DNA of 32,000 nt from Aquifex aeolicus VF5 (GTDB lineage Bacteria > Aquificota > Aquificia > Aquificales > Aquificaceae), in assembly GCF_000008625.1 (NCBI RefSeq), contig NC_000918.1, forward strand, positions 990,001 to 1,022,000, written 5' to 3'. The notes below the pieces were generated by a model that did not search any database, was not told where the DNA came from, and saw nothing but the letters and a program-made list of their open reading frames with translations. Position numbers and translations under genes: made by a program. Each line of letters opens with the position of its first letter. The stretch's first letter is position 1. Of the stretch, positions 1-28,590 are shown piece by piece.

Positions 1-717
1 GAAATAGGAAAGGAAGTGCTCGGCGTGGTTTTAATCGCTTGGGGAGCTATATTTCTTTCCATTTTATTTGCCTTTCTCTTCGGAAAATTCTTAAAACTTG
101 AAGAAAAAACTCTGAGGGCTTTTTTACTTGTTTCTTCGTTCGGAAATACAGCCTTTATGGGATATCCCTTTTTGTACGCTCTGGAAGGGAATGAAGGTTT
201 GAAGTACGCCATTTTATACGACCAATTAGGTTCATTCTTAATGGTAATTACCTTAGGACTGTTTTTAGCGATAGGCAAATTTGATCTCAAGGAATTAATT
301 CTTTTTCCGCCTTTTATAGCTTTAGTATTGTCTTTTTTACTTCACGGGGTTCGTTTTCCGCAGTTTTTTGAGCATTCCGTGGAAATAATTTCCGGTTCGC
401 TTATCCCGGTTATACTCTTTTCTCTGGGACTTCGTTTAAATTTCACAGATATGAAGTCGGATTACAGAACACTTTTTTCCGCACTCTTTATAAAAATGTT
501 CTTAGTTCCTCTGTTAATTTTAGTTTTTTTAAAAATTTTTGGACTCACTTCCTTGCCATATAGAGTGGCTTTAATCGAAAGTGCTATGCCCCCGATGGTA
601 TTTGCTGGCGTACTCGCTTTAAAATACGAACTGGACTTCAGACTTGCTTTTTCCGCAATAACACTGGGTATTGTCATCAGTTTATTTACAGTTCCTGTGT
701 TTAGGATCTTACTCTAA
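1..717 (+). CDS. AEC-family (auxin-efflux-carrier-like) membrane transporter, 5' end cut by the window edge
   Basis: The frame is open from base 1, with no stop before the GTG at 16. The protein is polytopic and hydrophobic, with SSFGNTAFMGYP and AMPPMVF segments typical of the AEC fold. About 233 aa of an expected ~300 aa are present. Confidence 0.65.
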   Translation, partial: EIGKEVLGVVLIAWGAIFLSILFAFLFGKFLKLEEKTLRAFLLVSSFGNTAFMGYPFLYALEGNEGLKYAILYDQLGSFLMVITLGLFLAIGKFDLKELILFPPFIALVLSFLLHGVRFPQFFEHSVEIISGSLIPVILFSLGLRLNFTDMKSDYRTLFSALFIKMFLVPLLILVFLKIFGLTSLPYRVALIESAMPPMVFAGVLALKYELDFRLAFSAITLGIVISLFTVPVFRILL

Positions 718-2455
718 TCTTTCTTTGCATTCTGTACATTTCTATAATTTCCTGTTCGGTGGTTGCGTCTTCCGGTCTTTTGTCGAACCTGTACCTTCCG
801 GTAAACCTCGGAAATCTCAGCCCAATTCCCCTGTTCGGAGAGACTTTTCCCCACCCGCACGTGTGAACAGGACTCAAAGTAAGTTCAGCTCCCGTTATTT
901 CAAGAACCAGATAGGGTTCAAACCACATGTCCGCTTCGAGAATTGAATTTACCCTCGGGTGTCTGTGGTTCAGTTTCCTCGGCATGAGTATCTCTTCAAG
1001 TTTCTTGAAGTCGTCTTCGGTAAATCCCGTTCCCACTTTAGTCACTGTTTTAAACATGTCACTTTCAGGGTCGTAGCACGCCATCAAGAGAGAACCGAAC
1101 GTTCCCTTCCTCTGTCCTTTTCCGTAAAAACCGCCCACGACCACAAGGTCAAGCGTGTCCGCAAGTACCGACTTGTAGTCTCTCTTGTACTTAATCCAGA
1201 GAAAGCCTCTCTTTCCCGCCTGGTATATGGAGTTGGGAGCAAGCGACTTACAAACTAGCCCCTCACATCCCTCTTCTATTGCCTGATAAAAGAAGTTTTC
1301 AAGATCCTCCACGTTGTCCACTATCTTTCTAGGAACGAGGCCTATACGGTCCGTCCTCTTTACGACTTTTTCTAAGATTTCCCTCCTCTCGGGGTAGGGC
1401 TTCAGGGTTAGGTCCTCACCGTCAAGGTATATGATGTCAAAGAGAAAGCCTGCAACGGGGTATTTCGTGATGTGGTACTTCGTTACGTACTTTACTTTTC
1501 TATGCATAAGTTCCTGAAAGGGTCTTATCTCACCACTTGCGGGGTCTATAACAACCGCTTCCAGTTCAACTATAAAGTCGTGGGGTATTGCTTCTTTTAA
1601 AAACTCTATAAGATCCGGGTACTGGTGAGTTATATTCTCAAGTCTCCTTGAAAAGAGATAAAACTCATCTCCCTTTCTGTGGGCTTGAATTCTCTCCCCG
1701 TCGTACTTGTACTCCGCTCCGCACTTTCCCCCGAGCTTTCTGAGGATGAGTATGGGACTGCTCATACGTTCTGCGAGCATGGGTCTTACGGGTCTTCCCA
1801 CCTGTATCTTTACCTGTTTTACCCCTTCCAGTCCTTTCTCCGCGAGGATTTTTGCCACGTAGCCGAGATCAGAAGTCAAGTTGTAGGCCCTCTCCACCAC
1901 TTCCCTGTTTACAGAACTTCCCGTAAAGGCTATGGAAAGAGCCTCCAGTATGGTGTTGTCCCCTATTCCGAGTCTCAGCCTTTCCGTTATCGTTCTCAAA
2001 AGGTACTTAGCTTCAAGAGGGGTTGCCTTTTTCAAAAGAGATGCGAATATGCTTATCTTTCTCTCCTGCGAGCCTATGCCTACGGCTTTTGCTATGTTTA
2101 AGAGTCCGTTGTAAACCTCTTCTACGGTTAGCGTCCCTTCGGGTTTAAAGCCAAGCTCTTCGTAAAGTTTCCTTCCAGCCTCTCCCAGATCTCCCTCTTG
2201 CCTAACTCTCTTTTCTATTTCCAGGGCGGGTATTTTGAGGACTCTGGAAAGAGCCCTTATGGCAAGCTTTTCACCGAAGTTGTAGTCAAGTCCCGTGTAC
2301 TCGGGAGCTATCTTACCTATTGATAGGTAAACGACTTTGTCTATTAATTCTTTAGGAGTTTGTTTGAAGAGCTCCACGAGGGAGCTCACCATTTCGATCC
2401 TGCTCGTTGTCTTCTCTATCCTCTCGTAAAACTCAGCCAGTATTCTGTATTCCAT
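701..2455 (-). CDS. lig: ATP-dependent DNA ligase, three-domain archaeal/eukaryal type
   Basis: Adenylation motif I is KYDGERIQ. The N-terminus [19 protein letters not shown] is archaeal-ligase-like, and an OB-fold C-terminal region is present. The likely start is the ATG at 2455; the track start at 2458 is a GTG one codon upstream. The 3' end overlaps the AEC gene convergently by 17 nt. Confidence 0.9.
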   Translation of the reverse strand: MEYRILAEFYERIEKTTSRIEMVSSLVELFKQTPKELIDKVVYLSIGKIAPEYTGLDYNFGEKLAIRALSRVLKIPALEIEKRVRQEGDLGEAGRKLYEELGFKPEGTLTVEEVYNGLLNIAKAVGIGSQERKISIFASLLKKATPLEAKYLLRTITERLRLGIGDNTILEALSIAFTGSSVNREVVERAYNLTSDLGYVAKILAEKGLEGVKQVKIQVGRPVRPMLAERMSSPILILRKLGGKCGAEYKYDGERIQAHRKGDEFYLFSRRLENITHQYPDLIEFLKEAIPHDFIVELEAVVIDPASGEIRPFQELMHRKVKYVTKYHITKYPVAGFLFDIIYLDGEDLTLKPYPERREILEKVVKRTDRIGLVPRKIVDNVEDLENFFYQAIEEGCEGLVCKSLAPNSIYQAGKRGFLWIKYKRDYKSVLADTLDLVVVGGFYGKGQRKGTFGSLLMACYDPESDMFKTVTKVGTGFTEDDFKKLEEILMPRKLNHRHPRVNSILEADMWFEPYLVLEITGAELTLSPVHTCGWGKVSPNRGIGLRFPRFTGRYRFDKRPEDATTEQEIIEMYRMQRKIRVRS

Positions 2456-2961
2456 CACTTGCTTGCAAGTTTTTCCTTAGCGTAAGCCATGAGCCCGCCT
2501 GCTTTGAGTATGTCCTGAAGCTCTTTGGGGAACTTGGTCGCCTGATACTCCTTTCCAGTTCTCAGGTTCTTAATTACTCCCTTTTCGAGGTCAACTTCTA
2601 TCTCGTCTCCGTGTTCAATTTCGTCTACTGCTTCCGGAGCTTCCACTATAGGGAGACCTATGTTTATGGCATTTCTGAAGAAAATTCTTGCAAAGGACTT
2701 TGCTATTACCACGGGTACGCCGGAATACTTTATGGCGATGGGGGCGTGTTCCCTGGAAGAACCAGAACCGAAGTTTTTGCCCGCTACTATAATGTCTCCT
2801 TCTTTGTGCTCTTTGGCAAACTCGGGATGTTCGCTGTCTTCCATGACGTGCTTTGCGAGCTCATACGGATCTGATGTATTCAAGTACCTTGCGGGAATTA
2901 TTTGGTCCGTATCTACGTTGTCTCCGAACTTCCAAACCCTTCCTCTAAACTTCATTTGCAT
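2455..2961 (-). CDS. leuD: 3-isopropylmalate dehydratase small subunit
   Basis: Motifs [15 protein letters not shown] and [14 protein letters not shown] are present. The real start is the ATG at 2961 (MQMKFRG) or at 2955. The upstream ORF extension to 3114 is low-complexity and runs through the AT-rich intergenic region. The TGA stop (2455-2457) shares one base with the lig ATG. Confidence 0.9.
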
Positions 2962-3013
2962 AATAATTAAATATACCTTACCTAAGCCTAGAATTTTTTT
3001 AATATTTAAAATT

Positions 3014-3538
3014 ATGATTATGAAATTTTTTAGTGAAAAGGCAGAAAAGAAGAAGGGAGGTGTAGAACCAGCTGTAGATGGTGTACTCTTAGAGCCTTCA
3101 AGGGAGAACTTCACCGTATCTTCTTTCCTCGAAGTAATAGCAGACGTAGGAGACGAGGAGGATTTGTACTTCTTTCAAAATAAGGCAGCTGAGAAGATGT
3201 CTTTAAAACTCGCAGAATACGTAAGGGAATTCAGCGGGAAGGAATCAGTCGGACTGTTTATTTCCTTCCTTAACTTCTTTCTGGAGAGAGAAAATCTCGG
3301 AAGTGTGAATTACGTAAAGGTTGACCTTTCGAACAAAAAGTTCGTCGTTGCGATTGAGAACTCTGCCATAGCTCTGGCTTTGAAAAAGAAGTACAAGAAG
3401 AAGGTTTGTAAATTCTACGAAACTCTACTTTCCGAGCTTTTTTCCGATTTGATCGGAGTGGACATAAAGTTTAAAGAGATACAGTGTCTTGCAGAGGAGG
3501 GGCAGCGTGAAAAGATTTGCATTTTTGAAAGTACTTAG
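3014..3538 (+). CDS. Small cytoplasmic protein with a V4R-like C-terminal Cys motif, first gene of the bcsB transcription unit
   Basis: The ATG at 3014 is the first start after the intergenic region; the ORF part from 2660-3013 is antisense to leuD. The C-terminus [41 protein letters not shown] fits the V4R pattern C..F..G...E..C...G...C.F, with a 3-residue longer last spacer. There is no signal peptide. Confidence 0.5.
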
Positions 3539-5600
3539 TCTCCTTCTTTTAATTGCCTTGTCCTTTTCCCAGACCACATCTGTAAAACTCTCGGAATTTC
3601 TCGGAAAGAATGTCCTCGATCTTAAGGGAATGGACGCAAGGGGTAAGCTCTCCTTTCCGGTGAACCCGCTCTGGAACGTTGAGAAGATAAAGTTCTACAT
3701 CTATTACAAAGCTTCGCCAGTTTTAAAGTCCGAACGTTCTGAGATCACTTTATTGCTAAACGGAAAAGTAATTACATCCAGACAGATTAAGGACGAGGGG
3801 TTAATAACCGTAGAAATAGAGAATCCTAAACTCTTTGATTTCAATACGCTGACTTTTAAAGCATCACAACACTACTGTATAAATTGCTGTGAAAACGAAA
3901 ACAGTCCTGAACTTTGGACGCAGATAGATCTAAAAAAATCGTATATACAGTTTCAGTACACCAAAAAACCTTTTCCCGAAAACTTAGCCTTTTTAAAGGA
4001 TATTTATCTATCCGAGAGACTGCTCAGTCCTGTGGAAATAGATATTCTGACGGATAAGGGAAGTAACAGACTCCTTACTGCAGGTGCGATATTTTCTGGG
4101 TACCTGGGTGCGAAGATAAAGTACAGAAGAATTTACGTAAATTACACGGAAAATCTCAGGGCAAAGGATACCGTTGTGATAGGTACGCAGGACTTTGTGA
4201 GCAGAGTGATCGGAGAGCGTGTATCGGGAAACATATACGTGACGCAAAACCCGAAGGATAAGAGTAAGTTCCTTTTAGTATTTACGGGAAGGGATGAAAA
4301 GGAAATCCTGAATGCAGTTAGAGCTTTTATACTCACTCCTTCTTCTTACCTCTCGGAGAAGTTCGTTTACGTTAGTGACGTAGTCCTGCCGGAGATAAAA
4401 GCGTACTCGAGTCCCGTTCTCTTGGCTCCGGGAGAGGAGATAACTTTAAGGAAGATAGCCGGAGGCGACGTAGTAGTCAGAGGTTACGCCGGAAGATTCG
4501 ATTTTTCCTTCTTCATTCCACCCGACTTAATGCTGAATCCGAAGGAAAAGTTGAGATTAAAACTCTTTTACAACCACGGATTGCTAGTAAGGGAGGGCTC
4601 AACAATAAACCTTTACATAAACGGAAAGTTCGTTTACTCCATTCCAGTTGATCCTTACGATAAGAGTGATTTAAAAGTAAGGGAAGTTTTAATTCCTACT
4701 AGTGTACTAAATAAAGGTTTTAACGTCCTCACCGTTGAGTCTGCACTCGTACCGAACAAAGAGGACTTCTGTGCAGCTGCGAATTTTGAAAGCCTTAAGG
4801 TTATAATCTACGGAAACTCCCTAATAAGTCTTCCCGACCTCGTCCACTGGACAAAAATGCCCAACCTCGTTTACTTCATCTCAACCGGTTTTCCCTTTAC
4901 GACTTACCCTGACATGAAGGACGCGGCCGTTTTAGTTGAATCCACAGATGGGGAAACACTTTCCTCAATGTTTACCCTTCTTGCCTTCATCGGAACTAAG
5001 ATACAATTTCCCCCTCTCAGACTCAGTGTGTACGTAGATAGACTACCAAATGACGTTGCACAGTCCAAGGATGTAATAGTTTTCTGGAACAGAAATTCCT
5101 TAATAAAGAAACAAATACTGAATTCTCTGGACAGTGTAGTCCTCGTAAAGGGAAAACTCTTTGAAGAAGATCAAAAGGAATTTTCCGTAAATCTCAGGAA
5201 GAGGGATTACGTCTTCACGATGGCTATGAGGGAGTCTCCCTTCAAGCCCAAAAGAACGATACTGGTTTTAAATTCTAAATCTCCCGGTACACTTCACAAG
5301 TTCGTAAAAATGCTTTACGACCCCGTAGTCCTATCTAAGATAAAGGGTGATACGGTATTTTACGACGAAAAAACAGACACAATCCTTTCCTCCTCTTCGG
5401 GACAGGTTTACTACATAGGGCACATGCCCGTATACAAGAAGGTATACTACGAAATAGGCTACAACCTTAAGTACCTGGTAGGACTGCTCTTAATATCACT
5501 CCTCGTACTCGCCTTTGCGACGAAGAAGCTCCTGGACTACAGGGCAAAGAAGAGACATCAGCAGGAAGAAAAGGAGGGTAAGGAGGAAGAGAAAAAGTGA
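3507..5600 (+). CDS. bcsB: Cellulose synthase periplasmic subunit BcsB-like
   Basis: The GTG at 3507 is preceded by GGAGGGG (3496-3502). It has the signal peptide [21 protein letters not shown] and a large two-module periplasmic body (LLLNGKVI / INLYINGKFVY). A single C-terminal TM anchor (LVGLLLISLLVLAFA) is followed by a K/E-rich tail. It lies next to GH8 bcsZ. Confidence 0.7.
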   Translation: MKRFAFLKVLSLLLLIALSFSQTTSVKLSEFLGKNVLDLKGMDARGKLSFPVNPLWNVEKIKFYIYYKASPVLKSERSEITLLLNGKVITSRQIKDEGLITVEIENPKLFDFNTLTFKASQHYCINCCENENSPELWTQIDLKKSYIQFQYTKKPFPENLAFLKDIYLSERLLSPVEIDILTDKGSNRLLTAGAIFSGYLGAKIKYRRIYVNYTENLRAKDTVVIGTQDFVSRVIGERVSGNIYVTQNPKDKSKFLLVFTGRDEKEILNAVRAFILTPSSYLSEKFVYVSDVVLPEIKAYSSPVLLAPGEEITLRKIAGGDVVVRGYAGRFDFSFFIPPDLMLNPKEKLRLKLFYNHGLLVREGSTINLYINGKFVYSIPVDPYDKSDLKVREVLIPTSVLNKGFNVLTVESALVPNKEDFCAAANFESLKVIIYGNSLISLPDLVHWTKMPNLVYFISTGFPFTTYPDMKDAAVLVESTDGETLSSMFTLLAFIGTKIQFPPLRLSVYVDRLPNDVAQSKDVIVFWNRNSLIKKQILNSLDSVVLVKGKLFEEDQKEFSVNLRKRDYVFTMAMRESPFKPKRTILVLNSKSPGTLHKFVKMLYDPVVLSKIKGDTVFYDEKTDTILSSSSGQVYYIGHMPVYKKVYYEIGYNLKYLVGLLLISLLVLAFATKKLLDYRAKKRHQQEEKEGKEEEKK

Positions 5601-6574
5601 AGTTCTTTACTGTTCTTTTGTTTTTCCTTTCATTCGTTTTTTCGGCGAGTATTGACGTGTGGAAATTGTGGGAACATTATAAAAAGACCTTTATAAGTAA
5701 AGAGGGGTACGTGGTAGATCCTTACAACAATTACAGGGTTACTTCGGAAGCTCAAGGCTATACACTTCTCATATCCGCCCTCATAGGGGATAAGGAAACC
5801 TTCTACAGGGTATGGAACTGGACAAAGGAAAATCTCAAAAGGAAGGATAATTTATTCTCCTGGCTCTGGATAAACGGACACGTAGTTGACAGAAACAACG
5901 CAACGGACGCCGACCTGTTCATAGCTTACGCTCTGCTAATCGCTTCTCAAAAGTGGAAGGATTATACGCTCCTGAGCGAGGCAAAGAGGATAAAGGATTC
6001 CGTCAAGGAACTCGTTGTGCCCGTGTGCAACGGAAGAAGGGATTACCTTTTTATACCCGCAAAGGAAGGTTACATTAAAAACAATATAGTGAGTTTAAAC
6101 GTAGTCTACTACGTCCCATTCATCTTCAGAAAGTTCTACGAATCTTTCGGAGAGGACGTGTGGAAAAACCTCTATAGGTACACCTACGACATTTATACGA
6201 TTAGGAATATATCAACGCACCTTACATACGACCTATTCAAAAAGGAATTGAGAAAGGGGAATTTTATAGACATAGACGGCATGCGTTTCCTGATATACGC
6301 TTACGTGGACGACAAAAGGAGTCTCCTTTACATGAGGAACGCAGTAGAGGGTATTCTGAAGTTTTACAGAGAAAAGGGTTACATTCCTTTGAAGTATAAT
6401 TACGTAACCGGTGGAGCAAGCAAGTTAAAAGCTCCCTTTTGTTTTTACTACGTATTCAGTAAGCTCCTTCCTTCCGATAAAAACTTAGAAAAGGAGTTCA
6501 GAAATGGGCTTGAGTACGACAAGAAGAATTACTACTGTTACGCTCTGCTTCTTATTGCTCTCCTACACGATTAG
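5597..6574 (+). CDS. bcsZ: Glycoside hydrolase family 8 endoglucanase
   Basis: ATDADLFIAYALLIASQKW (5900-5956) matches the GH8 active-site signature A-[ST]-D-[AG]-D-x2-[IM]-A-x-[SA]-[LIVM]-[LIVMG]-x-A-x3-[FW]. SEAQGYTLL is also present, along with a signal peptide. The GTG start overlaps the bcsB TGA (GTGA). Confidence 0.9.
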   Translation: MKFFTVLLFFLSFVFSASIDVWKLWEHYKKTFISKEGYVVDPYNNYRVTSEAQGYTLLISALIGDKETFYRVWNWTKENLKRKDNLFSWLWINGHVVDRNNATDADLFIAYALLIASQKWKDYTLLSEAKRIKDSVKELVVPVCNGRRDYLFIPAKEGYIKNNIVSLNVVYYVPFIFRKFYESFGEDVWKNLYRYTYDIYTIRNISTHLTYDLFKKELRKGNFIDIDGMRFLIYAYVDDKRSLLYMRNAVEGILKFYREKGYIPLKYNYVTGGASKLKAPFCFYYVFSKLLPSDKNLEKEFRNGLEYDKKNYYCYALLLIALLHD

Positions 6575-8516
6575 CTTCGCAGTGTACTACGTTAAAGTTC
6601 TGGAAACTACCGATAAAGCGAAGGCGGACGCAGTGCTCTACGAACTGGTAAACAGCGGTATAGACAACTGCAATGTAAAAAAAGCACAGAATTACGTGGT
6701 GTTTTGCGGTCCTTACTCCTCGCTCGATGAAGCGAGAACTGTATCTTCAAAAATCAACAAACTCGGTTACTTTACGGTTATAACGGAAAGAATTAAAAAG
6801 GAAACTAAAAAAAGTGTAAGAAAGACTGTTGAAAAAACTAAAACTACCGTAAAAAAAAGAGGACGGGTAAGGGAGGCCTTTTTAGGCCTAAAAGTTAAAG
6901 AGATGTACGACTACTTGAACGCAAACAAGTTAGTGGAAGCCCAGACACTCGCGTACAGCCTCCTGAATACGGAATTCAGAAACGAAGCTATATTTGTACT
7001 TGCACTTATAAACATGAAGAAAGGAAATCACGAAAAAGCCTGTGAACTTTTCTCAAAACTTCCCGATAAATTCAAACCCAATCTGGAAGAATTAAGGTCT
7101 ATATCCTGCCTGTACGCGGAGAAAATAAAAGAAAAACCAGAAGTAAAGAAGGAGGAAAAAACGGTTTACAGAGCTGATTTAACACAAGCCGGGAAATTGC
7201 TCGCACAGGGAAATCCAGAAGAGGCCATCGAACTTGCCAAAAAAGTTCTTCTCTCCGACCCAACAAACGTGGAAGCCATGCTCATTATAGGGGACGCCTA
7301 CATGGAACTGGGCGATTACTCTAACGCCTACTCCTATTACAAAATGGCACTGGGTTTTGACAAGGAAAACTTAAGAGCCATTAAAGGTTTGATGTACGCT
7401 TCACTGGCGTTAAAGAGATACGAGGAAGCCTACAATTACGCAAGGGAACTGGGGAGGTTGGGTGTTGAAAACGGAGACATAGAGAGGGTAAAAGCCCTGT
7501 ACCTTGCAAAGAAAGCGGAAGATTTTGTTAAGAGAAAGGAGTACGACAAAGCCTATATTTACCTGAAGGAGGCGGAGAAACTCGCTCCCGATGATCCTTA
7601 CGTGCTTTTACTCCTCGGGGATATTTACTTCGGCAGGGGAGATTACACACAGGCGTACAAGTACTACGTGGAGGCTTACAAAAGAAAAAGGGATTTTGAC
7701 TTTCTTTTGAAGATTCTTTACGCACTTGCTAACTTGAACAACTACGATCTTATAAACACTTACCTCTCCCAGATAGACGTGTCGGAACTGAATGAAGCTC
7801 AGAGGAGGAAGTTAAAGAACTTTTACAAGGTACTTTACGTAAAGGCATCATCTTACTACCTGAGTCAGAAGGACTACGAAAAGGCTTACAGGATAGCGAA
7901 AGAAGGATTGATTCTTTTTCCAAAGAATAGAACGCTGCTCAAAAATTTGGCATGGAGTTGCTTGAATTTAGAGGATTACAAGTGTGCTGAAGAGAACTTT
8001 AAGAAAGCGTTAAGTCTTTACGAGAATGATTACGACGCATTGTACGGTCTTGCTTTAACGTACGCGAGGGAAGGAAAGGAAGGCGAAGTAAACAAAATTG
8101 TGAAAAAGCTTGAAAAGAAGAGAGACAAGGAAACCTACATGAAGATAGCGGATATATACGTGATCCTGGGAGATTACGACAGGGCAGAGTACTACCTGAA
8201 TCAGGCTAAGAAATTGAGCAGGGCTAAGCCGGTAAAGATTAAGAGGGTCAAAATTCGCCCACGTGAAGAAAAATTAAGAGAGGAAAGAGTAGAAAGCACG
8301 ATCTTTTACAACCCGTTTATTAAAGGCTACGAAGGAGAAGAGAAGGAAACAGAAAAGGAAAAGGAGGAAAAACTTTACCCTTTTGAGCTTGAAGAGAAGA
8401 GGATTTCGGAGCTTGAAGAGAAGATAAAGGAGGCGAAGAAAAAGGAAAACACGGACTTTATAGAGTCGGGTATACAGTTCAGTCAAAATCGGGAAGAAAA
8501 GGTATGGACAAGTTAA
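6504..8516 (+). CDS. Exported SPOR-domain plus TPR-repeat protein, equivalent to the BcsC N-terminal TPR part
   Basis: AAGGAG lies 7 nt before the ATG at 6504. The signal peptide is ITTVTLCFLLLSYTISFA. A SPOR-like beta-alpha-beta-beta-alpha-beta segment lies at 6582-6792. Many TPR units follow (for example GDYSNAYSYYKMAL, GDYTQAYKYYVEAY), then a K/E-rich linker. Confidence 0.75.
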   Translation: MGLSTTRRITTVTLCFLLLSYTISFAVYYVKVLETTDKAKADAVLYELVNSGIDNCNVKKAQNYVVFCGPYSSLDEARTVSSKINKLGYFTVITERIKKETKKSVRKTVEKTKTTVKKRGRVREAFLGLKVKEMYDYLNANKLVEAQTLAYSLLNTEFRNEAIFVLALINMKKGNHEKACELFSKLPDKFKPNLEELRSISCLYAEKIKEKPEVKKEEKTVYRADLTQAGKLLAQGNPEEAIELAKKVLLSDPTNVEAMLIIGDAYMELGDYSNAYSYYKMALGFDKENLRAIKGLMYASLALKRYEEAYNYARELGRLGVENGDIERVKALYLAKKAEDFVKRKEYDKAYIYLKEAEKLAPDDPYVLLLLGDIYFGRGDYTQAYKYYVEAYKRKRDFDFLLKILYALANLNNYDLINTYLSQIDVSELNEAQRRKLKNFYKVLYVKASSYYLSQKDYEKAYRIAKEGLILFPKNRTLLKNLAWSCLNLEDYKCAEENFKKALSLYENDYDALYGLALTYAREGKEGEVNKIVKKLEKKRDKETYMKIADIYVILGDYDRAEYYLNQAKKLSRAKPVKIKRVKIRPREEKLREERVESTIFYNPFIKGYEGEEKETEKEKEEKLYPFELEEKRISELEEKIKEAKKKENTDFIESGIQFSQNREEKVWTS

Positions 8517-9496
8517 TACACACGAGCGTTTACCTGAACGCAGAAAAGAAGTTAGCGAGGGGGTTTTATCTGTGGACGGAAAACGATTTAATATTTCTCG
8601 ATTCTGGCGGTAAACCTGACTACACGCACTTCGGTGGTATAAATCTTCCCGTTATAAGGGACACGGATACTTCTTTTATAGGAATTGAGCCTATGGTAGG
8701 TGTAAGAGTTGGAAGGAAGAGTTACCTTAAACTCGGGATAGGCTCCACGCCCTTCGGAAACTCAAAGGTTCGTCCCACGTTTAGGGGAATATTCGAGGCA
8801 AATTACAGGGAAGAGGACATACTCCTCAGACTTACACTGAAACGGGACAGTGTAAGGGATTCCCTACTTTCCTACGTCGGGGCAAAGGATCCCCACGCAG
8901 ACAGGGAATGGGGGCGCGTTGTGGAACAGGGAGGAGAGGTTAAGTTCCAGCTCGGTAGCGGATACAGAGAAAGCTTCCTTTCTTTGAAAGGCGGTTATTA
9001 CGACATAGAAGGTAAGAACGTGAACGACAATTCAAGGTACTTTCTGGAAATTTATCCTTCCCTTTACCTCGGTAATTTACTGATAGACGAAAACTACTTA
9101 GGTCTCTTCTTCAGGTACGAGAACTACGATAAGAACGAAAATCTGTTTTACTTTGGAAACGGAGGTTACTTCAGTCCGAAAAACTTTGTACTTTTAGGGC
9201 CAAAGTACACCGGTTACTTTTACACGGACAGGTTGATGTTCAGGCTGAATCTTCTTCTGGGATTCCTGAGGTTTGAAACGGACGGTGATACGACGAACAC
9301 TCTTGCTGCAGACATCTCGGGAGAGTTTGAGTATAAGCTGAAGGAGAAAATATCACTTATAGGTGGCTTGGGCTACAGAAATTCAAAGGATTACGACGAA
9401 GTTTCTTTAAACATGGGAGTAAAATACTACTTCAACGGTCTTGAAAGCCCATTCAGGTCTACGGTGGATAAAGTAGACGAGAGGTTGTTCAAATGA
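8504..9496 (+). CDS. bcsC: BcsC C-terminal (BCSC_C-like) outer-membrane beta-barrel, encoded as a separate ORF
   Basis: The sequence shows an alternating beta-strand pattern. YFGNGGYFSPKNF resembles the conserved GGYFSPQ motif of BcsC barrels. There is no signal peptide of its own. The start overlaps the TPR ORF by 13 nt, in the -1 frame relative to it. Confidence 0.7.
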   Translation: MDKLIHTSVYLNAEKKLARGFYLWTENDLIFLDSGGKPDYTHFGGINLPVIRDTDTSFIGIEPMVGVRVGRKSYLKLGIGSTPFGNSKVRPTFRGIFEANYREEDILLRLTLKRDSVRDSLLSYVGAKDPHADREWGRVVEQGGEVKFQLGSGYRESFLSLKGGYYDIEGKNVNDNSRYFLEIYPSLYLGNLLIDENYLGLFFRYENYDKNENLFYFGNGGYFSPKNFVLLGPKYTGYFYTDRLMFRLNLLLGFLRFETDGDTTNTLAADISGEFEYKLKEKISLIGGLGYRNSKDYDEVSLNMGVKYYFNGLESPFRSTVDKVDERLFK

Positions 9497-10227
9497 TTAT
9501 TCCAGTACTTTCCTCAAAAGGAGGAGTGGGTAAGACAACTATAGCCACAAATTTAGCCTACACACTTTCCAAGAAAGCAAAAACCGTTTTGATAGACACG
9601 GATCCCCAAAACGGAGTGGCTTCCGTTTTGTGCAAGCGTCACGATATCGGACTTGCGGACATACTACTCGAAGGAACAAATTACGGGGAAACCCTCCGGC
9701 AGGTAAGGGAAAACTTTTTTATAATACCTACGGGTGCAAAAGCTATAGAGAATGAGTTTTCCTTTAATGAAAGTTTTAAGTACGAAAATATTCAAAACCT
9801 CTGTCTTAAACTCGAATCAGAAGGAGGATTTGAGTTTATTCTTTTCGACACACCTCCGGGGTATACGGTTCAGTCAAACGTACTCATGAAGTTGGCAGAT
9901 GTAATTCTTGCGGTGTTCGAAGCTGAACCCGCTTCCTACGCTTCTTTCAAGGTGTTCGAAACGCATATGTTTACAAAGGAAAAAGAAATTAGGGAAAAGT
10001 TGTGGTTAATAATAAACAAAGTAAGGGCTTCGGAAATAAGCGAAGATTTTTCATTCATTTTCAGGTACGAGGCCGGAGGGAACATCCTCGCCTACCTTCC
10101 TTACGACGAAGCCGTGTCCGTAGCCTCGGGGGAGTGCCTGCTCGTTGAGGAGTACAAACCTGACTCTCCTTTTGTCAAGCTCATGTATGAATTAGTTGAG
10201 AAATTATTGACACTCCTTAAAAAATGA
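9493..10227 (+). CDS. bcsQ: MinD/ParA-family ATPase, BcsQ (YhjQ)-like
   Basis: It has the deviant Walker A SSKGGVGKTT, IDTDPQN and a Walker B FDTPPG. It has an ATGA overlap with the barrel gene and sits inside the bcs cluster. Confidence 0.8.
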   Translation: MIIPVLSSKGGVGKTTIATNLAYTLSKKAKTVLIDTDPQNGVASVLCKRHDIGLADILLEGTNYGETLRQVRENFFIIPTGAKAIENEFSFNESFKYENIQNLCLKLESEGGFEFILFDTPPGYTVQSNVLMKLADVILAVFEAEPASYASFKVFETHMFTKEKEIREKLWLIINKVRASEISEDFSFIFRYEAGGNILAYLPYDEAVSVASGECLLVEEYKPDSPFVKLMYELVEKLLTLLKK

Positions 10228-10894
10228 GTTTTAACCTCAAAACTTTGTTTCTGTAAGTAACGCTTGCGTAGTCTACCGCCTTTATACCCTTTACTTTTCC
10301 GTTTTTAAAGCCCTCAAGCTCGAGTACGTAGGTTATCTTATCCCTTTTGTAAACCCTGCACCTTACCGGAATAAATCCTTCTTTTTTGTTAAGGATGAGG
10401 GCGTAATTTACAGCGTCAGCAACGGAGTAAGGAAAGTAACTCTTAAAGGTTATTTCCCTTTTTGTGAGCTTTCCCTCAAAGGAAACAATGTCTTCGAAAA
10501 CTTTTTTAACAGCTTTACATATTAACTCCTTTTCATTTTTTCCGTGAAGTACCAACTCCTTTCCGTTAAAACTTTCCACTTTCTTTTTCACATTTCCTTT
10601 GTTTATACTTACTATCCTGTCCTCGATATAGTAACACGTTCTGAGGAATGCCCCAGGATAAACGCTTTTTACTTGAGAAAGGTACTCTTTAGCTTTGCTT
10701 TTATTTTCCCACAAACCGACTCTTACGGTGTAATAATCTCCTATCTTTTCTATCCGTGCATGAGGGTAATCTGCGAGTTTTCGGTAAGCCCTTTCAGCGG
10801 AACTAAGATCTCTCGAAGACAGAACCTGTATACAGTAATAAGCTTCCTTGGAAAAGGAAAAGACTATTATTAAGAGGAGAAGGATAACCCCCAT
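10217..10894 (-). CDS. Membrane-anchored/exported SPOR-domain protein downstream of bcsA
   Basis: A strong SD, AAGGAGGGG, lies 6-8 nt before the ATG at 10894, inside the bcsA 3' end. The N-terminus is hydrophobic (GVILLLLIIVFSFS). The SPOR-like segment is YYCIQVLSS...YYTVRVGLWENKSKAKEYL (10631-10843). The ~135-aa C-terminal domain is of unknown type. Confidence 0.7.
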   Translation of the reverse strand: MGVILLLLIIVFSFSKEAYYCIQVLSSRDLSSAERAYRKLADYPHARIEKIGDYYTVRVGLWENKSKAKEYLSQVKSVYPGAFLRTCYYIEDRIVSINKGNVKKKVESFNGKELVLHGKNEKELICKAVKKVFEDIVSFEGKLTKREITFKSYFPYSVADAVNYALILNKKEGFIPVRCRVYKRDKITYVLELEGFKNGKVKGIKAVDYASVTYRNKVLRLKLIF

Positions 10895-13149
10895 TTAATT
10901 CCCCTCCTTATGTAATTCCATACTGTATTTAGGATATCATTTTTGAAGTAGTTGTATATGGATATGTAAACCTGTCCGAAGTCACGTAAAATTTGTTTCG
11001 TAAGTACTACAAAACCCTCAAAGGGTGTTAATTCCCTTTCCCTTTCAAGGAGGATTACCCACCTGCTGCTTGGAGCGTAAACTATATCTACTATCTTACT
11101 TACAGTTTCCACATCTTCAGGTTTCCATTCAAACTTCATTCTGAGGATATTCCTGTCCTTTTCGTAGCGAACCACTTTCGGTTTTATGTACACCAGCTTA
11201 TTTTCTACATTCCTTATTACTCCTTTTACTTCTTCACCTTCCTTGAATTCTTCCTTTGGTTTAGTTTCAAGTTTTACCGCAAGTCCTCCGAGGGATATAT
11301 CAATCACCCTTCCCAGAAGGGTTTCAGAGTCCCTGTAAATTATTATCTGGTCGTTTGATGGTATTCTGTGGAATTTCCTTCTCTGCCTTCTTTCGTAAGA
11401 AACATAGAGTGCTACCGTCATAACAAAGAAGTTAAAAGTGTTCCACCACAAGGTAATCAGAACCGTTCCCCTCTCGTCGGGGTACTGTATCCACCTGTAT
11501 ATGCCGAATAAATAACCGAGCAGGATAAGGTGATACAGGATAAAGTAAGGTTTGTAAAAGGGACTGATATAGTCCCTGTCTAGGAGTTCGCCCTTTGGTG
11601 TAACCCTGAAGGTGGGGTTCTTGGGATTTAAAAGGGTAAGTATAGATGGAATAAAGATAAATATACCGAGTATGCTTTCGTATATCTCGGATATAAAAGG
11701 CCACCTAACCCTGCTGAATAAGTAGTAAAAGAGTAACAAGCTTGCAAGAAAGTGGGGTATGGGATAGGCTAGGACTTCAGCTAAAGAAGCGTCGTATATG
11801 TGAAGTCCGAAAAGGAGGTAAGCGAGGGGAGCTATAAGGAATATAGTCCTTGCAAGTCCGAAGAACCAGAAAAAGCTAGCGTTAAAGTAAGCGAGTTTTT
11901 GATACCACTTCAAGCCCTTTTTAAGTATAGGGTTTTTGAGTATGAATATCTGGATCATTCCCTGTGCCCACCTTATCCTTTGGACTATCATTCCCGACAG
12001 CGTTTCAGGGTTCAAACCGAATATTAAAGGTCTGTCGTAGTAAACACTTTCGTAGCCCCTAGAGTGTAACTCTAACGCTGTTTCTGCGTCCTCTGTAACT
12101 GTTGTTGTCTGTATTCCCCCCACTTCTTCAAGGTACTTTCTCCTCAAGAGTGCAGCTGAACCGCAGAAAAAGGAGGAATTCCACAGGTCAAAGCCCTTCT
12201 GAATGAGGAAGTAAAACATTTCGTTCTCTCCGGGCATCCTTCCGAAAACACCGAGGTTTTTCTCTATAGGGTCGGGATTGTAAAAGGTGTGAGGGGTCTG
12301 TACGAGAAATACTTTTGGGTTTTTAACGAAGAATCCCACAGTTTCTTTTAAAAAGTCCTTTGAAGGAACGTGATCTGCATCCAATATAAGGATAAGGTCT
12401 CCTTTTGTTTTCTTCAGGGCTTCGTTTATGTTACCTGCCTTTGCGTGTACGTTCTTCTCCCTTGTAAGGTAGTGTATATTTTTGTAACCGAGTTTCCTCA
12501 GTCTTTCTACAAAGGACTTTAATTCCTCAGCCCTCTTTCTGAAGTACTCCCTCCTTTCAGGATCGGGATCATTTAGTCTTTGTTTCGTTCCCCCGTCGTC
12601 GAGTATGTAAACGTTAAACTTATCCGAAGGATAGTCCATATTAATCGCAGCAAGTGCGGTAGTTTCTGGAATTTCGGGCGGTTCGTTGTAGGTAGGTATG
12701 AACACGTCAACCGTGGGCAAAGATTCCATATCCACTTTTATGGCTTTTCTATCTATAGGTCTTATAGAGAAGAAAATACCGAGAAGTGCTATTGTTACAC
12801 TGTAGAATTCTGCAAAGTAAAGGGCTGTTGAGAAGATAAAGTTCCACACGTTGTCCGTGTTTATAGTGTTGAAAGTTCTCCACCAGAAGTACCTCAGCAT
12901 TATAAAGACGAGCAGGTACACGGTAAGGTAATGGGTATAGCCGAAATTAAACCGTTTCCATACAATGAGAAAAGCTCCCGCAAGGAGTGTGGAGTAGGCT
13001 ATGTAAAATTGAAATTCTAAGGGAGAAGGGGCTACTATGACACTGAGGTAAGTGAGAAGTCCGAAAATAAAGGTGTACTTAAGAGCTTTTATAAATAAGT
13101 TTTCGTCTATGTGAAGGTTAAACTCGAATAAAGTAAAGCGCTCTGTCAT
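10870..13149 (-). CDS. bcsA: Cellulose synthase catalytic subunit (GT2) with C-terminal PilZ domain
   Basis: GT2 motifs are present: DDG, ILDADH, FFCGS, TED (12088-12096) and QRIRW (11968-11982). The PilZ motifs RRQRR and DISLGG fall within 11113-11391. The ATG at 13149 is preceded by AGGAG; the track start at 13152 is a TTG. Confidence 0.92.
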   Translation of the reverse strand: MTERFTLFEFNLHIDENLFIKALKYTFIFGLLTYLSVIVAPSPLEFQFYIAYSTLLAGAFLIVWKRFNFGYTHYLTVYLLVFIMLRYFWWRTFNTINTDNVWNFIFSTALYFAEFYSVTIALLGIFFSIRPIDRKAIKVDMESLPTVDVFIPTYNEPPEIPETTALAAINMDYPSDKFNVYILDDGGTKQRLNDPDPERREYFRKRAEELKSFVERLRKLGYKNIHYLTREKNVHAKAGNINEALKKTKGDLILILDADHVPSKDFLKETVGFFVKNPKVFLVQTPHTFYNPDPIEKNLGVFGRMPGENEMFYFLIQKGFDLWNSSFFCGSAALLRRKYLEEVGGIQTTTVTEDAETALELHSRGYESVYYDRPLIFGLNPETLSGMIVQRIRWAQGMIQIFILKNPILKKGLKWYQKLAYFNASFFWFFGLARTIFLIAPLAYLLFGLHIYDASLAEVLAYPIPHFLASLLLFYYLFSRVRWPFISEIYESILGIFIFIPSILTLLNPKNPTFRVTPKGELLDRDYISPFYKPYFILYHLILLGYLFGIYRWIQYPDERGTVLITLWWNTFNFFVMTVALYVSYERRQRRKFHRIPSNDQIIIYRDSETLLGRVIDISLGGLAVKLETKPKEEFKEGEEVKGVIRNVENKLVYIKPKVVRYEKDRNILRMKFEWKPEDVETVSKIVDIVYAPSSRWVILLERERELTPFEGFVVLTKQILRDFGQVYISIYNYFKNDILNTVWNYIRRGIKWGLSFSS

Positions 13150-13328
13150 CAACTACTCCTATTTTTAAAGATATTTCTCAAGTCCTCTATAGTCAGAGTC
13201 CTTTTAAACTGCTTTTTTTCCGCTTCCCTTTTTTCTTCCTCCTCCTCTTGAACTATGTGGTTTACTATTTTCCACTTTTTAGCTAACCTTTTGAACCTCG
13301 CCTCGTCCCTGAAGGAGAAATCATCCAT
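13149..13328 (-). CDS. Candidate 59-aa charged helical micro-protein upstream of bcsA (below the ORF-track length cutoff)
   Basis: My hand translation gives MDDFSFRDEARFKRLAKKWKIVNHIVQEEEEEKREAEKKQFKRTLTIEDLRNIFKNRSS. Its TGA (13149-13151) shares one base with the bcsA ATG (TGATG). No SD is present, so it could simply be the bcsA 5' UTR. Confidence 0.35.
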   Translation of the reverse strand: MDDFSFRDEARFKRLAKKWKIVNHIVQEEEEEKREAEKKQFKRTLTIEDLRNIFKNRSS

Positions 13329-13351
13329 AGGTTATAGAATAATATCTTAGA

Positions 13352-14204: not shown

Positions 14205-14525
14205 ATGGACAGGATAGCTTACTTCAAGAGTTTACTTGAGAAAAATCCGGACAACCCTATGGTTCACTATTCCCTAGGACTTGAGTACTTCAAAGTGAAG
14301 GATTACGAAAATGCCATAAAGCACCTTGAGAGGTACTTAGAACTTCAGGAAGACGAAGGTGCGGCTTACAGAACTTTGGCAAAGTGCTACGAGGAACTTG
14401 GAGAGTTCCAGAAGGCTATAGAAGTTCTGGAAGAAGGAATAAGACAGGCGATGAAGTACAATCACCCCTCCATGGCTCAGGAGTATCAGCAGTGGATTGA
14501 GGAGTTAAAGGGAATGGCTTTCTAG
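14205..14525 (+). CDS. Small TPR-like protein (106 aa)
   Basis: The ATG at 14205 has GGAGG 6 nt upstream. It contains two or three TPR-like helical hairpins ([28 protein letters not shown]; [25 protein letters not shown]). The upstream ORF extension overlaps the DUF72 gene. Confidence 0.6.
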
Positions 14526-20434: not shown

Positions 20435-20893
20435 TTACTTACTTTTCTGGCAGTCTTCGCATATACCGAAAATCTCAAGCCTGTGGTGAGCGGGCTTGAA
20501 GTTGTACTTTTTGCATATTTCTTCCTGAAGCTTTTCTATCTCCTCATCAACGAATTCTATTATCCTCCCGCATTCCGTGCACACCAGATGGTCGTGGTGA
20601 GAACGTCCAATAACGAACTCGTAAATGGTTTTATTGTCCTTTTTTATTACTTCCTTAACAGCTCCGAACTCTTCAAGGAGTTTTACGGTTCTGTAAACGG
20701 TAGAACGTGAAACTTTTTTATCCTTGTGATTTGCAATCCAGTTTACTAATTCCTCAATCTCAAAGTGTTTGTTGTAGTCCGCTATAAGGTCTATGAGGTT
20801 TAAACGGGATTTGGTTACTTTCATGTTCTTCTTTTTCAAAAATTTAGTAAACTCCTTCTTTAGTTCTTCAACGTTTACCCTCATTAGTATCAT
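20435..20893 (-). CDS. fur: Fur-family metalloregulator (Fur/Zur/PerR not distinguishable)
   Basis: It has a winged-helix N-terminal domain, HHDHLVCTECG and CEDC (a structural CxxC pair plus His-rich regulatory site). An alternative start is M4 at 20884. Confidence 0.85.
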   Translation of the reverse strand: MILMRVNVEELKKEFTKFLKKKNMKVTKSRLNLIDLIADYNKHFEIEELVNWIANHKDKKVSRSTVYRTVKLLEEFGAVKEVIKKDNKTIYEFVIGRSHHDHLVCTECGRIIEFVDEEIEKLQEEICKKYNFKPAHHRLEIFGICEDCQKSK

Positions 20894-22350: not shown

Positions 22351-22944
22351 ATGGAAAACGTAAAGGAAGACAGGACCTTGGATCTATCTGGGCTCAGTTG
22401 TCCTCTCCCTGTCGTTATGACATCTGAAACGATGAGAAAAATGGAAGAAGGGCAGGTTTTAAAGGTGATTTCCACGGATCCGGGTTTTGAGAGGGATATA
22501 TGGAGCTGGGCAAAGCAAAGTGGGAATATACTTCTCAAGGTTGAGAAAGAAGACGGAAAGACGATAGCTTACATAAAGAAGGCAAGCGAGGCACACGAGC
22601 CATCACTCTGGTACTGGATAAAGTTCCACTCCTTAGGTGTAAAGCTCCACATAAGGCAGTTCTGTATACAGATAAACCCCTTCGTAAAGAAACCCACGCA
22701 CTTTATAACCTTCAGTGCCATCTCCGAAGGAACGAGGGCTGAAAAAGAACTGAAAAAACTCGGTGAGAAAGATGCAGTTCTGATACCAATTCCGGATGAA
22801 ATAGACCCGAGGTGCGGAGTTGTTCTCGCTGTTCACGGCGAGAAAAAGGCAAGGGAGATTTACGAAAAGTTAAAGGATATGGACATAGCGGTTGAAGCCA
22901 TTTACGAAAAGAAAGGAAAAGAGTACGAGAGAGTTTACCCTTAA
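22351..22944 (+). CDS. TusA/SirA-like sulfur-carrier domain fused to a DUF3343-like domain
   Basis: The N-terminal LDLSGLSCPLPVVM has the CPxP motif. The C-terminal FITFSAISEGTRAEKELKKLG..LIPIPDEIDPRCGVVLAV fits the DUF3343 pattern (IP.P..I...CG.A). Confidence 0.7.
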   Translation: MENVKEDRTLDLSGLSCPLPVVMTSETMRKMEEGQVLKVISTDPGFERDIWSWAKQSGNILLKVEKEDGKTIAYIKKASEAHEPSLWYWIKFHSLGVKLHIRQFCIQINPFVKKPTHFITFSAISEGTRAEKELKKLGEKDAVLIPIPDEIDPRCGVVLAVHGEKKAREIYEKLKDMDIAVEAIYEKKGKEYERVYP

Positions 22945-24722: not shown

Positions 24723-25451
24723 ATGAGACTCGGAGTAAACGTTGACCACGTGGCCACCGTAAGGCAGGCGAGGAGAACCTTTGAGCCCTCCCCCGTATTC
24801 GCGGCCCTCATAGCCCAGCAGGCGGGAGCGGATCAGATAACCCTCCATCTCAGGGAGGACAGGAGACACATACAGGACAGGGATTTAGAACTCATAAAGG
24901 AACTAATAACCATTCCCGTAAACCTTGAGATGGCTCCCACTGAAGAGATGAGAGAAATAGCCCTGAGAGTAAAACCTGACAGAATAACCCTTGTTCCCGA
25001 AAGAAGGGAGGAAATCACCACCGAAGGTGGTCTTGACGTAGTATCACTGAAGGAAAAACTCAAAGAATACTTAAAGCCCATAAAGGAGGCAGGTATTGAA
25101 GTCTCCCTCTTTATAGAAGCTCAGAAGGAACAAATAGACGCAAGTGTAGAAGTAGGGGCTGACGCCATAGAAATCCACACAGGAAGGTACGCAAACCTCT
25201 GGAACGAACACAGGTTTGAGGAAGCGAAGGAAGAGCTAAACAGGATAAAGGAAGCGGCAATTTACGCGAAGGAAAAAGGACTGAAGGTTTACGCGGGACA
25301 CGGACTTACTTACCACAACGTAAAAGACTTTGTCAGGGAACTCAAAGGCTACGTAGAAGAATTAAACATCGGTCACTCAATTGTGGCAAACGCCGTGATA
25401 TTCGGATTTGAAAGAGCTGTGAAGGAGATGTTAAACCTTATTAAGACTTGA
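24723..25451 (+). CDS. pdxJ: Pyridoxine 5'-phosphate synthase
   Basis: [25 protein letters not shown] and the 242-aa length match PdxJ. Confidence 0.95.
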
Positions 25452-27960: not shown

Positions 27961-28590
27961 ATGCTCAGGTTTGAGGATTGGGAACTCGCGGTAGTTATAA
28001 TTCTCACGAGGTTTATGGAAGCAATAGCGATAATAATAAGCATATACCTCGCCTTTAACGGCTACAAGCTCAGGTATGTCCTTGCAACCGCAGGTGTATT
28101 CCTTTTGAGCGTGTTGATAAACTTAACGGGACTCATTTTCAGACCTTACTTTATTTACTTTTCCTTAGCGAGTATATTCCTGAGTGCGCTTATACTTACC
28201 GCTTTAATTCTTTACGTTAAAAAGAACCCGGAAAAGACTAAGAGTTTTTCCCTTCCGGAAAACGCCAGATGTCCGGTTTGTAATGTTCTAATCCTCAAAG
28301 AGGACGAGCTCTGTACCGCAAAAATTGGGAATTATACTTACTACTTTGATACGTGTCACCATCTGGTTCAGCTACTTAAGGAACCCGATTACTTCGTAGA
28401 AAGGGGAAACATTTTTAAAGGAGAACTAAAAGAAGTTTTCGTAAAAACTAAGGATACAAAAAAGTGGAAAAAATTCAGTGAAGTGAAACTCGTGGGAGAG
28501 GACGGAAGACTTGTCGCTTATGAAAACCCTCCGAAAGGAGCAAAGGTAATAAATCCGGAGGAAATTCTTAGAGAAAGTCCCTTAAGTTGA
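27961..28590 (+). CDS. Membrane protein (3-4 TM helices) with a C-terminal Cys/His-containing soluble domain
   Basis: The N-terminal ~95 aa are hydrophobic. They are followed by CPVC-x6-C-x13-YYFDTCHH...EPDYF, loosely reminiscent of YHS/TRASH metal-binding modules. Confidence 0.5.

Follow-up and report, generated by a model that had tools for sequence, protein, structure and literature searches.

Described bacterial cellulose secretion (Bcs) systems fall into three canonical types: type I (Komagataeibacter-like), with the gene order bcsABCD; type II (E. coli-like), with the order bcsRQABZC; and type III, in which BcsK takes the place of BcsC. A feature of all three is that bcsA and bcsB are adjacent on one strand. 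This feature is absent from the bcs locus of Aquifex aeolicus VF5, which occupies positions 3014 to 13328 of the 32,000-nucleotide (nt) stretch analysed here (NC_000918.1, positions 990,001 to 1,022,000; "the window"). Rearrangements of bcsA and bcsZ that define operon clades have been described in Burkholderia and Pandoraea (Bundalovic-Torma et al. 2020, PMC7112194), but that survey has no Aquificota entry and describes no bcsA that is convergent with bcsQ while bcsB belongs to the opposite unit. We consider it likely that the A. aeolicus locus is a complete Bcs cellulose-secretion system belonging to an operon variant of the Aquificota and Nautiliaceae, derived from a colinear ancestor by one inversion in Aquifex and carrying, in the sequenced strain, a frameshift in bcsC.

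The nine open reading frames (ORFs) of the locus are present where the first-pass annotation had placed them, and all of its junction overlaps agree with the ORF map of the window. On the plus strand, the gene for a putative V4R-fold, BcsD-like protein (3020..3538, with an alternative ATG at 3014) overlaps bcsB (3507..5600) by 32 nt, and bcsB overlaps bcsZ (5597..6574) by 4 nt. There follow overlaps of 71 nt between bcsZ and an ORF encoding SPOR and TPR modules (6504..8516), of 13 nt between this ORF and a barrel ORF (8504..9496), and of 4 nt between the barrel ORF and bcsQ (9493..10227), the last plus-strand gene. On the minus strand, a micro-ORF of 59 codons (13149..13328) overlaps the start of bcsA (10870..13152) by 1-4 nt, and bcsA is followed by the gene for a 225-amino acid (aa) SPOR protein (10217..10894). 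The bcsA TTG start used here differs from the start of the called gene. The two units converge tail to tail, their stop regions overlapping by 11 nt at 10217..10227.

Profile hidden Markov models agreed with the earlier family assignments of the ORFs, although the V4R match was below its gathering score and the SPOR match of the TPR protein was borderline. BcsA, a cellulose synthase of glycosyltransferase family 2 (759-760 aa) predicted to depend on cyclic diguanylate (c-di-GMP), scored 1050.9 bits against the NCBIfam equivalog TIGR03030 (cut-off 699.1), its PilZ domain matched with E 6e-15, and it matched the R. sphaeroides BcsA structures with E 3e-155. In an alignment to 5ej1, the translation has the full set of catalytic motifs (DDG, DxD, TED and QxxRW, here ILDDGG, LDADH, VTEDAET and QRIRWAQG), the gating-loop FxVTxK (FRVTPKG), and the PilZ RxxxR and DxSxxG motifs (RRQRR and DISLGG). 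BcsB, the periplasmic co-catalytic subunit, has a signal peptide and a C-terminal transmembrane (TM) anchor, YLVGLLLISLLVLAFATKKLL; it matched its Pfam family with E 1e-127 and NCBIfam NF008329 with 1226.5 bits (cut-off 1098). The 325-aa BcsZ, a GH8 endoglucanase, matched Pfam Glyco_hydro_8 (E 2e-37) and NCBIfam BcsZ (E 8e-36). BcsQ is a SIMIBI/MinD-type ATPase with the deviant Walker A motif KGGVGKTT in the P-loop SSKGGVGKTT; it scored 56.3 bits against CBP_BcsQ (PF06564, gathering score 21.3, E 4e-15), and its 83 bits against the NCBIfam equivalog TIGR03371 (E 2e-23) are below the cut-off of 158. The barrel ORF matched Pfam BCSC_C with E 1e-41. It had been suggested that the plus-strand unit might not be bcs-related if profile searches failed for BcsB or the barrel; both matched. 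By profile and motif, BcsA, BcsB, BcsZ, BcsQ and, in its intact allele, BcsC are members of the Bcs families.

The GH8 enzyme of A. aeolicus VF5 is described as a thermostable endoglucanase, Cel8Y (Kim et al. 2000, cited in PMC5005244), and in our view bcsZ is probably the gene for this enzyme. A review (PMC10086821) says, as a secondary statement, that A. aeolicus produces cellulose. Given Cel8Y and this statement, a cellulose function at high temperature is plausible.

The locus resembles type II systems in encoding a BcsA with a PilZ domain, BcsB, BcsZ, BcsC and the BcsQ ATPase, and in having at the operon head a micro-protein of about 60 aa with a [KR]-W motif like R51-W52 of BcsR. It differs from them in that the ORFs of the Aquifex locus gave no BcsE, BcsF or BcsG profile match, bcsQ is last rather than second, the micro-protein is weakly BcsR-like, a V4R/BcsD-like gene belongs between bcsA and bcsB, BcsC carries SPOR modules, and, in Aquifex, bcsA has the opposite orientation to bcsB. 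Type I systems share a cytosolic accessory protein of about 160-180 aa with, in Aquifex, a predicted BcsD fold, but the Aquifex protein itself matches V4R only, its place in the operon is between bcsA and bcsB and not after bcsC, and it keeps the V4R-type Cys/Glu/Cys/Cys residues that are missing in the aligned AxCeSD; no BcsH, BcsP or BcsO was recognised in the locus. Type III differs in having BcsK, whereas here there is a BCSC_C barrel, fused to the TPR region in the intact allele. None of the three types fits, since BcsE, BcsF and BcsG are lacking from the locus (not type II), BcsC is present (not type III), and the BcsD profile match is below threshold (not cleanly type I). The combination of BcsR-like protein, BcsA, V4R/BcsD-like protein, BcsB, BcsZ, SPOR-BcsC and BcsQ is a coherent and apparently undescribed Bcs variant of hydrothermal Aquificota and Nautiliaceae.

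In the window, bcsA and bcsB are on opposite strands, 5.3 kb apart, in convergent units, and must therefore be transcribed separately. A scan for BcsA, with one genome per species, gave 80 loci, 71 of which had enough downstream sequence to be informative; of these 71, from many phyla, 67 have bcsB directly downstream of bcsA in the same orientation. The uncoupling of the two genes, to which the first-pass annotation had drawn attention, is thus both real and rare. The nearest relatives of the locus are in Hydrogenothermaceae-type Aquificota (loci L004-L006, L008, L089, L090, L093 and L094) and Nautiliaceae (L010-L012). These have a colinear operon consisting of a small ORF, bcsA, a V4R-like gene, bcsB, the GH8 gene bcsZ, a bcsC encoding SPOR, TPR and barrel in one chain, and bcsQ, which is the last bcs gene there too. 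All seven genes are seen in L004, L006, L008, L010, L011, L089 and L094, and part of the operon in L005, L012, L090 and L093.

The convergent layout is found in two more Aquifex lineages, L084 and L085 plus L003 (one metagenome-assembled genome, MAG). In L084, BcsA is 91 % and the SPOR protein 66 % identical to those of the window, and the neighbouring DUF72 gene is shared; in L085 plus L003, the identities are 72 % and 48 %, and the flanking genes are unlike those of the window. The latter lineage carries a V4R homologue, and the L084 contig stops inside bcsB, before the V4R position. Every component visible across the Aquifex lineages, including the 59-aa ORF, is kept, with 46-91 % identity. 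Because bcsB directly follows bcsA in 67 of 71 loci from many phyla, parsimony makes the colinear order ancestral. We infer that a single inversion in the genus Aquifex, either of the block from the V4R gene to bcsQ or, equivalently, of the small ORF and bcsA, would have given the two convergent units. The genus-specific gene for a SPOR/archease-like protein now stands after bcsA. No earlier description of the convergent arrangement was found in the literature reached, which excluded Romling & Galperin 2015.

Two of the surveyed loci have contexts of their own. In L003 (Aquifex sp. MAG 11, positions 1-3300), a tRNA-Asp gene (2995-3072) immediately precedes the small ORF and bcsA, and transketolase, tRNA-His and a serine-recombinase fragment are found further upstream; these flanks are not those of A. 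aeolicus, and they could mark a recombination-prone site. In a Nitrospinales MAG (L078, 3717-15564), neither bcsB nor bcsZ nor bcsC could be detected in the 10 kb downstream of bcsA, which makes it a possible further case of uncoupling.

The micro-ORF upstream of bcsA had been taken as an extra of the Aquifex arrangement. It is instead a regular component, as it also stands just upstream of bcsA in the colinear operons of the Hydrogenothermaceae and Nautiliaceae and abuts the bcsA start in every related locus examined. The family comprises 14 proteins of 51-98 aa, whose named sources are Aquifex, Hydrogenothermaceae or Nautilia, and has the core L-K-[KR]-W-[KP]-I-[LIV]-x-[FY]-L-[DE] with a C-terminal IS.L+KIF. 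The core resembles LKRWPLLAEF of E. coli BcsR, in which R51-W52 is at the BcsQ/c-di-GMP interface (PMC8892547), and one family member matched NCBIfam BcsR_only (NF040717) weakly, at E 0.0037. With BcsQ encoded in the same operon, this cytosolic micro-protein is most economically read as a BcsR-like partner, and we provisionally regard it as a candidate BcsR analogue.

The division of BcsC between two ORFs, previously read as a design of this variant, comes from one missing G at position 8482 of the plus strand. The 5' fragment encodes a signal peptide, a SPOR-like module and an array matching TPR families, and is stopped early by the frameshift; the 3' fragment, with the BCSC_C β-barrel, starts MDKLIHTS and has no signal peptide. 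L001, an assembly of a public read set, is 99.94 % identical to the window, with 11 single-nucleotide differences and one insertion/deletion: it has GG at 8482 where the window has G. The extra G joins the two ORFs into a single SPOR-TPR-barrel BcsC of 980 aa. Eight of these 12 differences are inside the bcs region, which makes up 51 % of the compared length, and so show no meaningful excess. A second public read-set assembly from the same strain (L002) shows 100 % identity to the window across 20,227 nt, deletion included; the same deletion in an independent read set indicates a real mutation and not a sequencing error.

Fused BcsC proteins of 950 and 1007 aa occur in the Aquifex lineages L084 and L085, and of about 1080-1180 aa in the Hydrogenothermaceae and Nautiliaceae. 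A single chain of signal peptide, TPR region and 16-strand barrel is thus found in L001, L084 and L085, and not in the window. Across the junction the intact frame reads GIQFRSKSGRKGMDKL, where relatives have KSGRKGLDKL, KSGRTGLDKL, KDGNSGTSKL and KSGTTGLGQL, so that the break at 8482 falls within a conserved KSG+xG..L motif at the start of the barrel. Judged from these sequences, the BcsC split is a strain-level lesion and no design feature, and the bcsQ pseudogene of E. coli K-12 offers a parallel. Having no signal peptide, the stand-alone barrel ORF should not reach the outer membrane, and export is probably defective in the sequenced strain. Programmed -1 frameshifting at 8482 was considered as well and rejected as unsupported: no X XXY YYZ slippery heptamer was seen in CAG TTC AGT CAA AAT CGG GAA GAA AAG, and an intact allele exists.

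A BcsC made by design of two polypeptides, with a SPOR and TPR scaffold and a separate barrel, would account for the 13-nt overlap of the two ORFs, for the Shine-Dalgarno-like AAGG ahead of the barrel ATG, and for the identical split sequence in L002, which is no sequencing error. This reading is very improbable and largely refuted by the single ORF that one extra G gives in the nearly identical L001, by the fused proteins of both other Aquifex lineages and of all Hydrogenothermaceae and Nautiliaceae relatives, by the position of the break within a conserved motif, and by the missing signal peptide of the stand-alone barrel ORF. Quite unlikely, too, is a decaying remnant, in which A. aeolicus would have lost cellulose production and the rearrangement and frameshift would be steps of gene loss. 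The frameshifted bcsC of the reference strain is what decay would produce, as is an apparent bcsA frameshift in the relative L007 (below), and E. coli K-12 again provides a parallel in its bcsQ pseudogene. Yet the remaining genes are intact, with all catalytic and c-di-GMP-binding motifs kept, L001 holds an intact bcsC allele, the components, the 59-aa ORF included, are 46-91 % identical across the Aquifex lineages, and the review cited above says, if only secondarily, that the organism makes cellulose.

The convergence itself might be adaptive, allowing an independent ratio of BcsA to BcsB or mutual antisense or collision control through the 3' ends; we think this unlikely. The layout has been kept in three Aquifex lineages, with stop-region overlaps between bcsQ and the SPOR gene of 11 nt in the window, 11 nt in L084 and 20 nt in L085, although the flanks differ in L085 plus L003. 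Separate dosage is also conceivable, since in E. coli BcsA and BcsB are not 1:1, one BcsA being found under a BcsB crown of up to 6 copies (PMC8892547). Retention within one genus is, however, equally expected from simple inheritance. The tail-to-tail overlap, earlier singled out as a collision, was read directly: bcsQ ends in ...AAA AAA TGA, and the TAA of the SPOR gene is the reverse complement of TTA at 10217-10219. Overlaps of this kind, of 4-21 nt, occur in six of the seven convergent gene pairs of the window (701-717, 10217-10227, 14522-14525, 22941-22944, 25431-25451 and 28582-28590), the sole non-overlapping pair being valS with the gene at 20435. The overlapping of convergent stops reads as a genome-wide habit in this organism and not as a property of the bcs locus. 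Scattered operons are likewise said to be a genome-wide trait of A. aeolicus, which also counts against an adaptive layout, and promoter-like and terminator-like sites in the locus are not enriched. A palindromic GC-stem hairpin, CTTCGGAAATAAGCGAAG, lies at 10028-10045 in the 3' part of bcsQ, about 170 nt past the stop of the minus-strand SPOR gene, and has a terminator-like score on both strands in a scan that was overall unenriched relative to shuffled sequences.

Several results weigh against our preferred reading of a colinear Bcs operon altered by one inversion and one strain-level frameshift. The inversion is deduced from gene order alone; no breakpoint repeats or relics were found, nor was a search aimed at them made. 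In L007, an uncultured Aquificales MAG whose BcsA is 54 % identical to that of A. aeolicus, the small ORF and bcsA also converge on bcsQ, an arrangement that may have arisen independently or be older and shared. Promoter and terminator scans of the locus did no better than on shuffled sequence. The micro-protein of the window had no match to the BcsR profiles PF10945 and NF040717, and the profile of its family gave no BcsR match in the Protein Data Bank (PDB); hhalign of the family against E. coli BcsR placed KKWKI on KRWPLL, with a non-significant probability of only 1.5 %.

The L007 locus has further peculiarities. A secreted protein of 449 aa, with no Pfam match, is encoded after bcsQ, between the convergent bcsQ and bcsA (8104-12890). 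The bcsA gene is apparently frameshifted, with ORFs at 8397-8822 and 8865-10655, and the small ORF is extended at the N-terminus and has an RWPIL motif resembling that of E. coli.

The V4R-like protein (172 aa, or 172-174 aa depending on the start; no signal peptide) had been viewed as recruited in the Aquifex variant. This does not hold, because the colinear operons of the Hydrogenothermaceae and Nautiliaceae have the gene as well, at the same place just upstream of bcsB. The window protein matched V4R (Pfam PF02830) with E 5.5e-6 and 26.7-26.8 bits, below the gathering score of 31; its orthologue P0019 scored 31.5 bits and P0024 41.7 bits, and all 13 aligned family members matched. Searched exhaustively with HMMER, 1.84 billion representative proteins yielded only 12 relatives at E <= 1e-3, where a word-indexed search had given 2. 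Homologues are directly upstream of bcsB in L004, L005, L006, L008, L010-L012, L085, L089, L090, L093 and L094, and P0023, P0024, P0026 and P0029 were located between bcsA and bcsB. The most distant relatives, P0028 and P0030, are generic V4R proteins adjoining UbiA and FAD-dependent genes. Another relative, P0025 (32 % identical, E 2e-8; L091, 2351-4841), is encoded outside any bcs context, between a D12-class DNA methyltransferase gene and an Eco57I-like gene.

Both V4R and BcsD are recognised in this family. On the V4R side, the protein matches the solved V4R protein MJ1460 with E 0.0045 and shares with it E-x2-C...C-x-F-E; the next-nearest relatives are generic V4R proteins. Its AlphaFold2 model (pLDDT 81.7, pTM 0.76) gave Foldseek matches to PoxR, MopR and DmpR in their V4R sensor domains (E 1e-5, TMq about 0.6) and to TRAPPC3 of the Bet3 family, in keeping with a Bet3/V4R two-layer α/β fold. 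Unlike those sensors, the Aquifex protein is a stand-alone V4R in a polysaccharide-synthase operon and is not N-terminal to a transcription factor. On the BcsD side, the Foldseek matches were equally strong, with BcsD of four species found at E 6e-5 to 3e-4 and TM 0.63-0.72 (8pkd, E 6.4e-5; 3a8e, E 7.2e-5; 7zzy, TMt 0.72). The Cellsynth_D profile (PF03500) came near threshold in five of 13 family members (E <= 0.06), the best with 22.6 bits against a threshold of 23 (E 1.3e-4) over profile positions 13-102 of 110; the window protein itself had no Cellsynth_D match. The four matching members with checked context are all bcs-linked, and none of the three non-bcs relatives matches. An hhalign comparison of the bcs-linked alignment with BcsD gave E 1.3e-4 and 54 % probability over 70 columns, pairing LNxFL....LGSVxV...I.HxNSP with LNALLALIGWGTVTL...IVHENLP of AxCeSD, the sequence of which was verified against 3a8e.

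C130, E153, C156 and C167 are invariant in the bcs-linked V4R set. The three cysteines conserved without exception in the Aquificota members are missing from the Nautiliaceae members (L010, 12364-12858; L012, 5077-5553). Zn binding in V4R and TRAPPC3 has been described, and the structural likeness of TRAPPC3/V4R to AxCeSD mentioned in passing (PMC10933270); no paper treating both BcsD and V4R was found in the literature searched. We conclude from sequence and model that the protein is a predicted V4R-fold, cytosolic Bcs accessory subunit related to BcsD, which may sense a ligand or scaffold the synthase, and that it is probably metal-stabilised. A further proposal is possible but doubtful: that this protein, with its conserved Cys/Glu/Cys/Cys site, is the evolutionary link between V4R and BcsD, with BcsD derived from a V4R sensor, that cellulose synthesis in the hot-vent systems responds to a second, small hydrophobic ligand beside c-di-GMP, and that the SPOR-headed BcsC, joined in Aquifex by the detached SPOR protein, pins export to the peptidoglycan.

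Recruitment of two SPOR modules by the Aquifex variant, as earlier proposed, is not supported. The 225-aa protein is specific to Aquifex, with three relatives among 5.8 billion proteins, all from that genus, but a SPOR-headed BcsC is found in the Hydrogenothermaceae and Nautiliaceae as well. In the 225-aa protein, a signal or anchor at the N-terminus is followed by a SPOR domain and by a C-terminal domain of some 115 aa; the protein scored 48.8 bits against SPOR (PF05036), and its model also matched the SPOR domains of CwlC and DedD in Foldseek. With 21.3-23.5 bits, close to the gathering score of 21, the BcsC N-terminus of the window was a borderline case; the corresponding scores were 23.5 and 20.7 bits in Aquifex, 27.5 in L004 and 24.6 in the Nautiliaceae. 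BcsC of L004 and L010 has two N-terminal modules, of which the Aquifex BcsC keeps the first only. Compared with the second SPOR as it occurs in the Hydrogenothermaceae-type BcsC of L004, the 225-aa protein shows 42 % identity in its SPOR domain (E 5e-20); comparison of that domain with the SPOR of the Aquifex BcsC gave E 0.24. The simplest story is that the second SPOR module would have become detached from BcsC in Aquifex, forming a gene behind bcsA and gaining a new C-terminal domain. The AlphaFold2 model of the protein has a pLDDT of 65 overall and about 70-80 locally in the C-terminal domain; this moderate-confidence model matched archease 1j5u in Foldseek (E 1.6e-4, TM 0.63), a hint that the domain may be archease-like in its predicted fold. 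The C-terminal domain had no Pfam match even at E <= 10, archease included. A 2021 review (PMC8892547) treats the crossing of the peptidoglycan by Bcs systems as an open problem and never mentions SPOR, and no paper treating both "SPOR domain" and BcsC was found in the literature searched.

A working of the machine like that of other Bcs systems can be proposed, with BcsRQ and BcsD biology drawn from PMC8892547. Binding of c-di-GMP to the PilZ domain would activate BcsA, which would polymerise UDP-glucose and push the glucan out by a channel of its own. BcsB, translated from the other mRNA, would join BcsA post-translationally through its C-terminal TM helix. BcsZ would trim the glucan and BcsC carry it across the periplasm and outer membrane, while the SPOR head of BcsC, and probably also the extra SPOR protein, would hold the apparatus on the peptidoglycan. 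BcsQ and the micro-protein would act at the cytosolic face of BcsA, with the V4R/BcsD-like protein as a cytosolic accessory subunit.

At the borders of the locus, only 23 nt (13329-13351) lie between the DUF72 gene and the 59-aa ORF at their divergent starts, and leuD is spaced 64 nt from the V4R gene; with gaps this small, the two bcs units must have promoters that overlap either one another or the genes next to them. Adjoining leuD on the minus strand (701-2458) is a gene for a 585-aa ATP-dependent DNA ligase of archaeal/eukaryotic type, striking in a bacterium but already known for A. aeolicus. There were no Rfam matches in the locus search and no tRNAs in the window.

The most striking features of the A. 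aeolicus bcs locus have ordinary causes, namely an inversion, a frameshift and a compact genome, and two false leads, the split BcsC and the tail-to-tail overlap, are removed. For those who would study thermophilic cellulose in A. aeolicus VF5, base 8482 is worth checking first. For specialists, the leads are the V4R-BcsD link, which suggests where BcsD, a subunit of debated role, may have come from and provides a testable hypothesis of ligand binding for it, and the SPOR-tethered BcsC, whose modules bear on the placement of Bcs relative to the peptidoglycan. Aquifex is also a natural experiment suggesting that co-transcription of BcsA and BcsB is dispensable.

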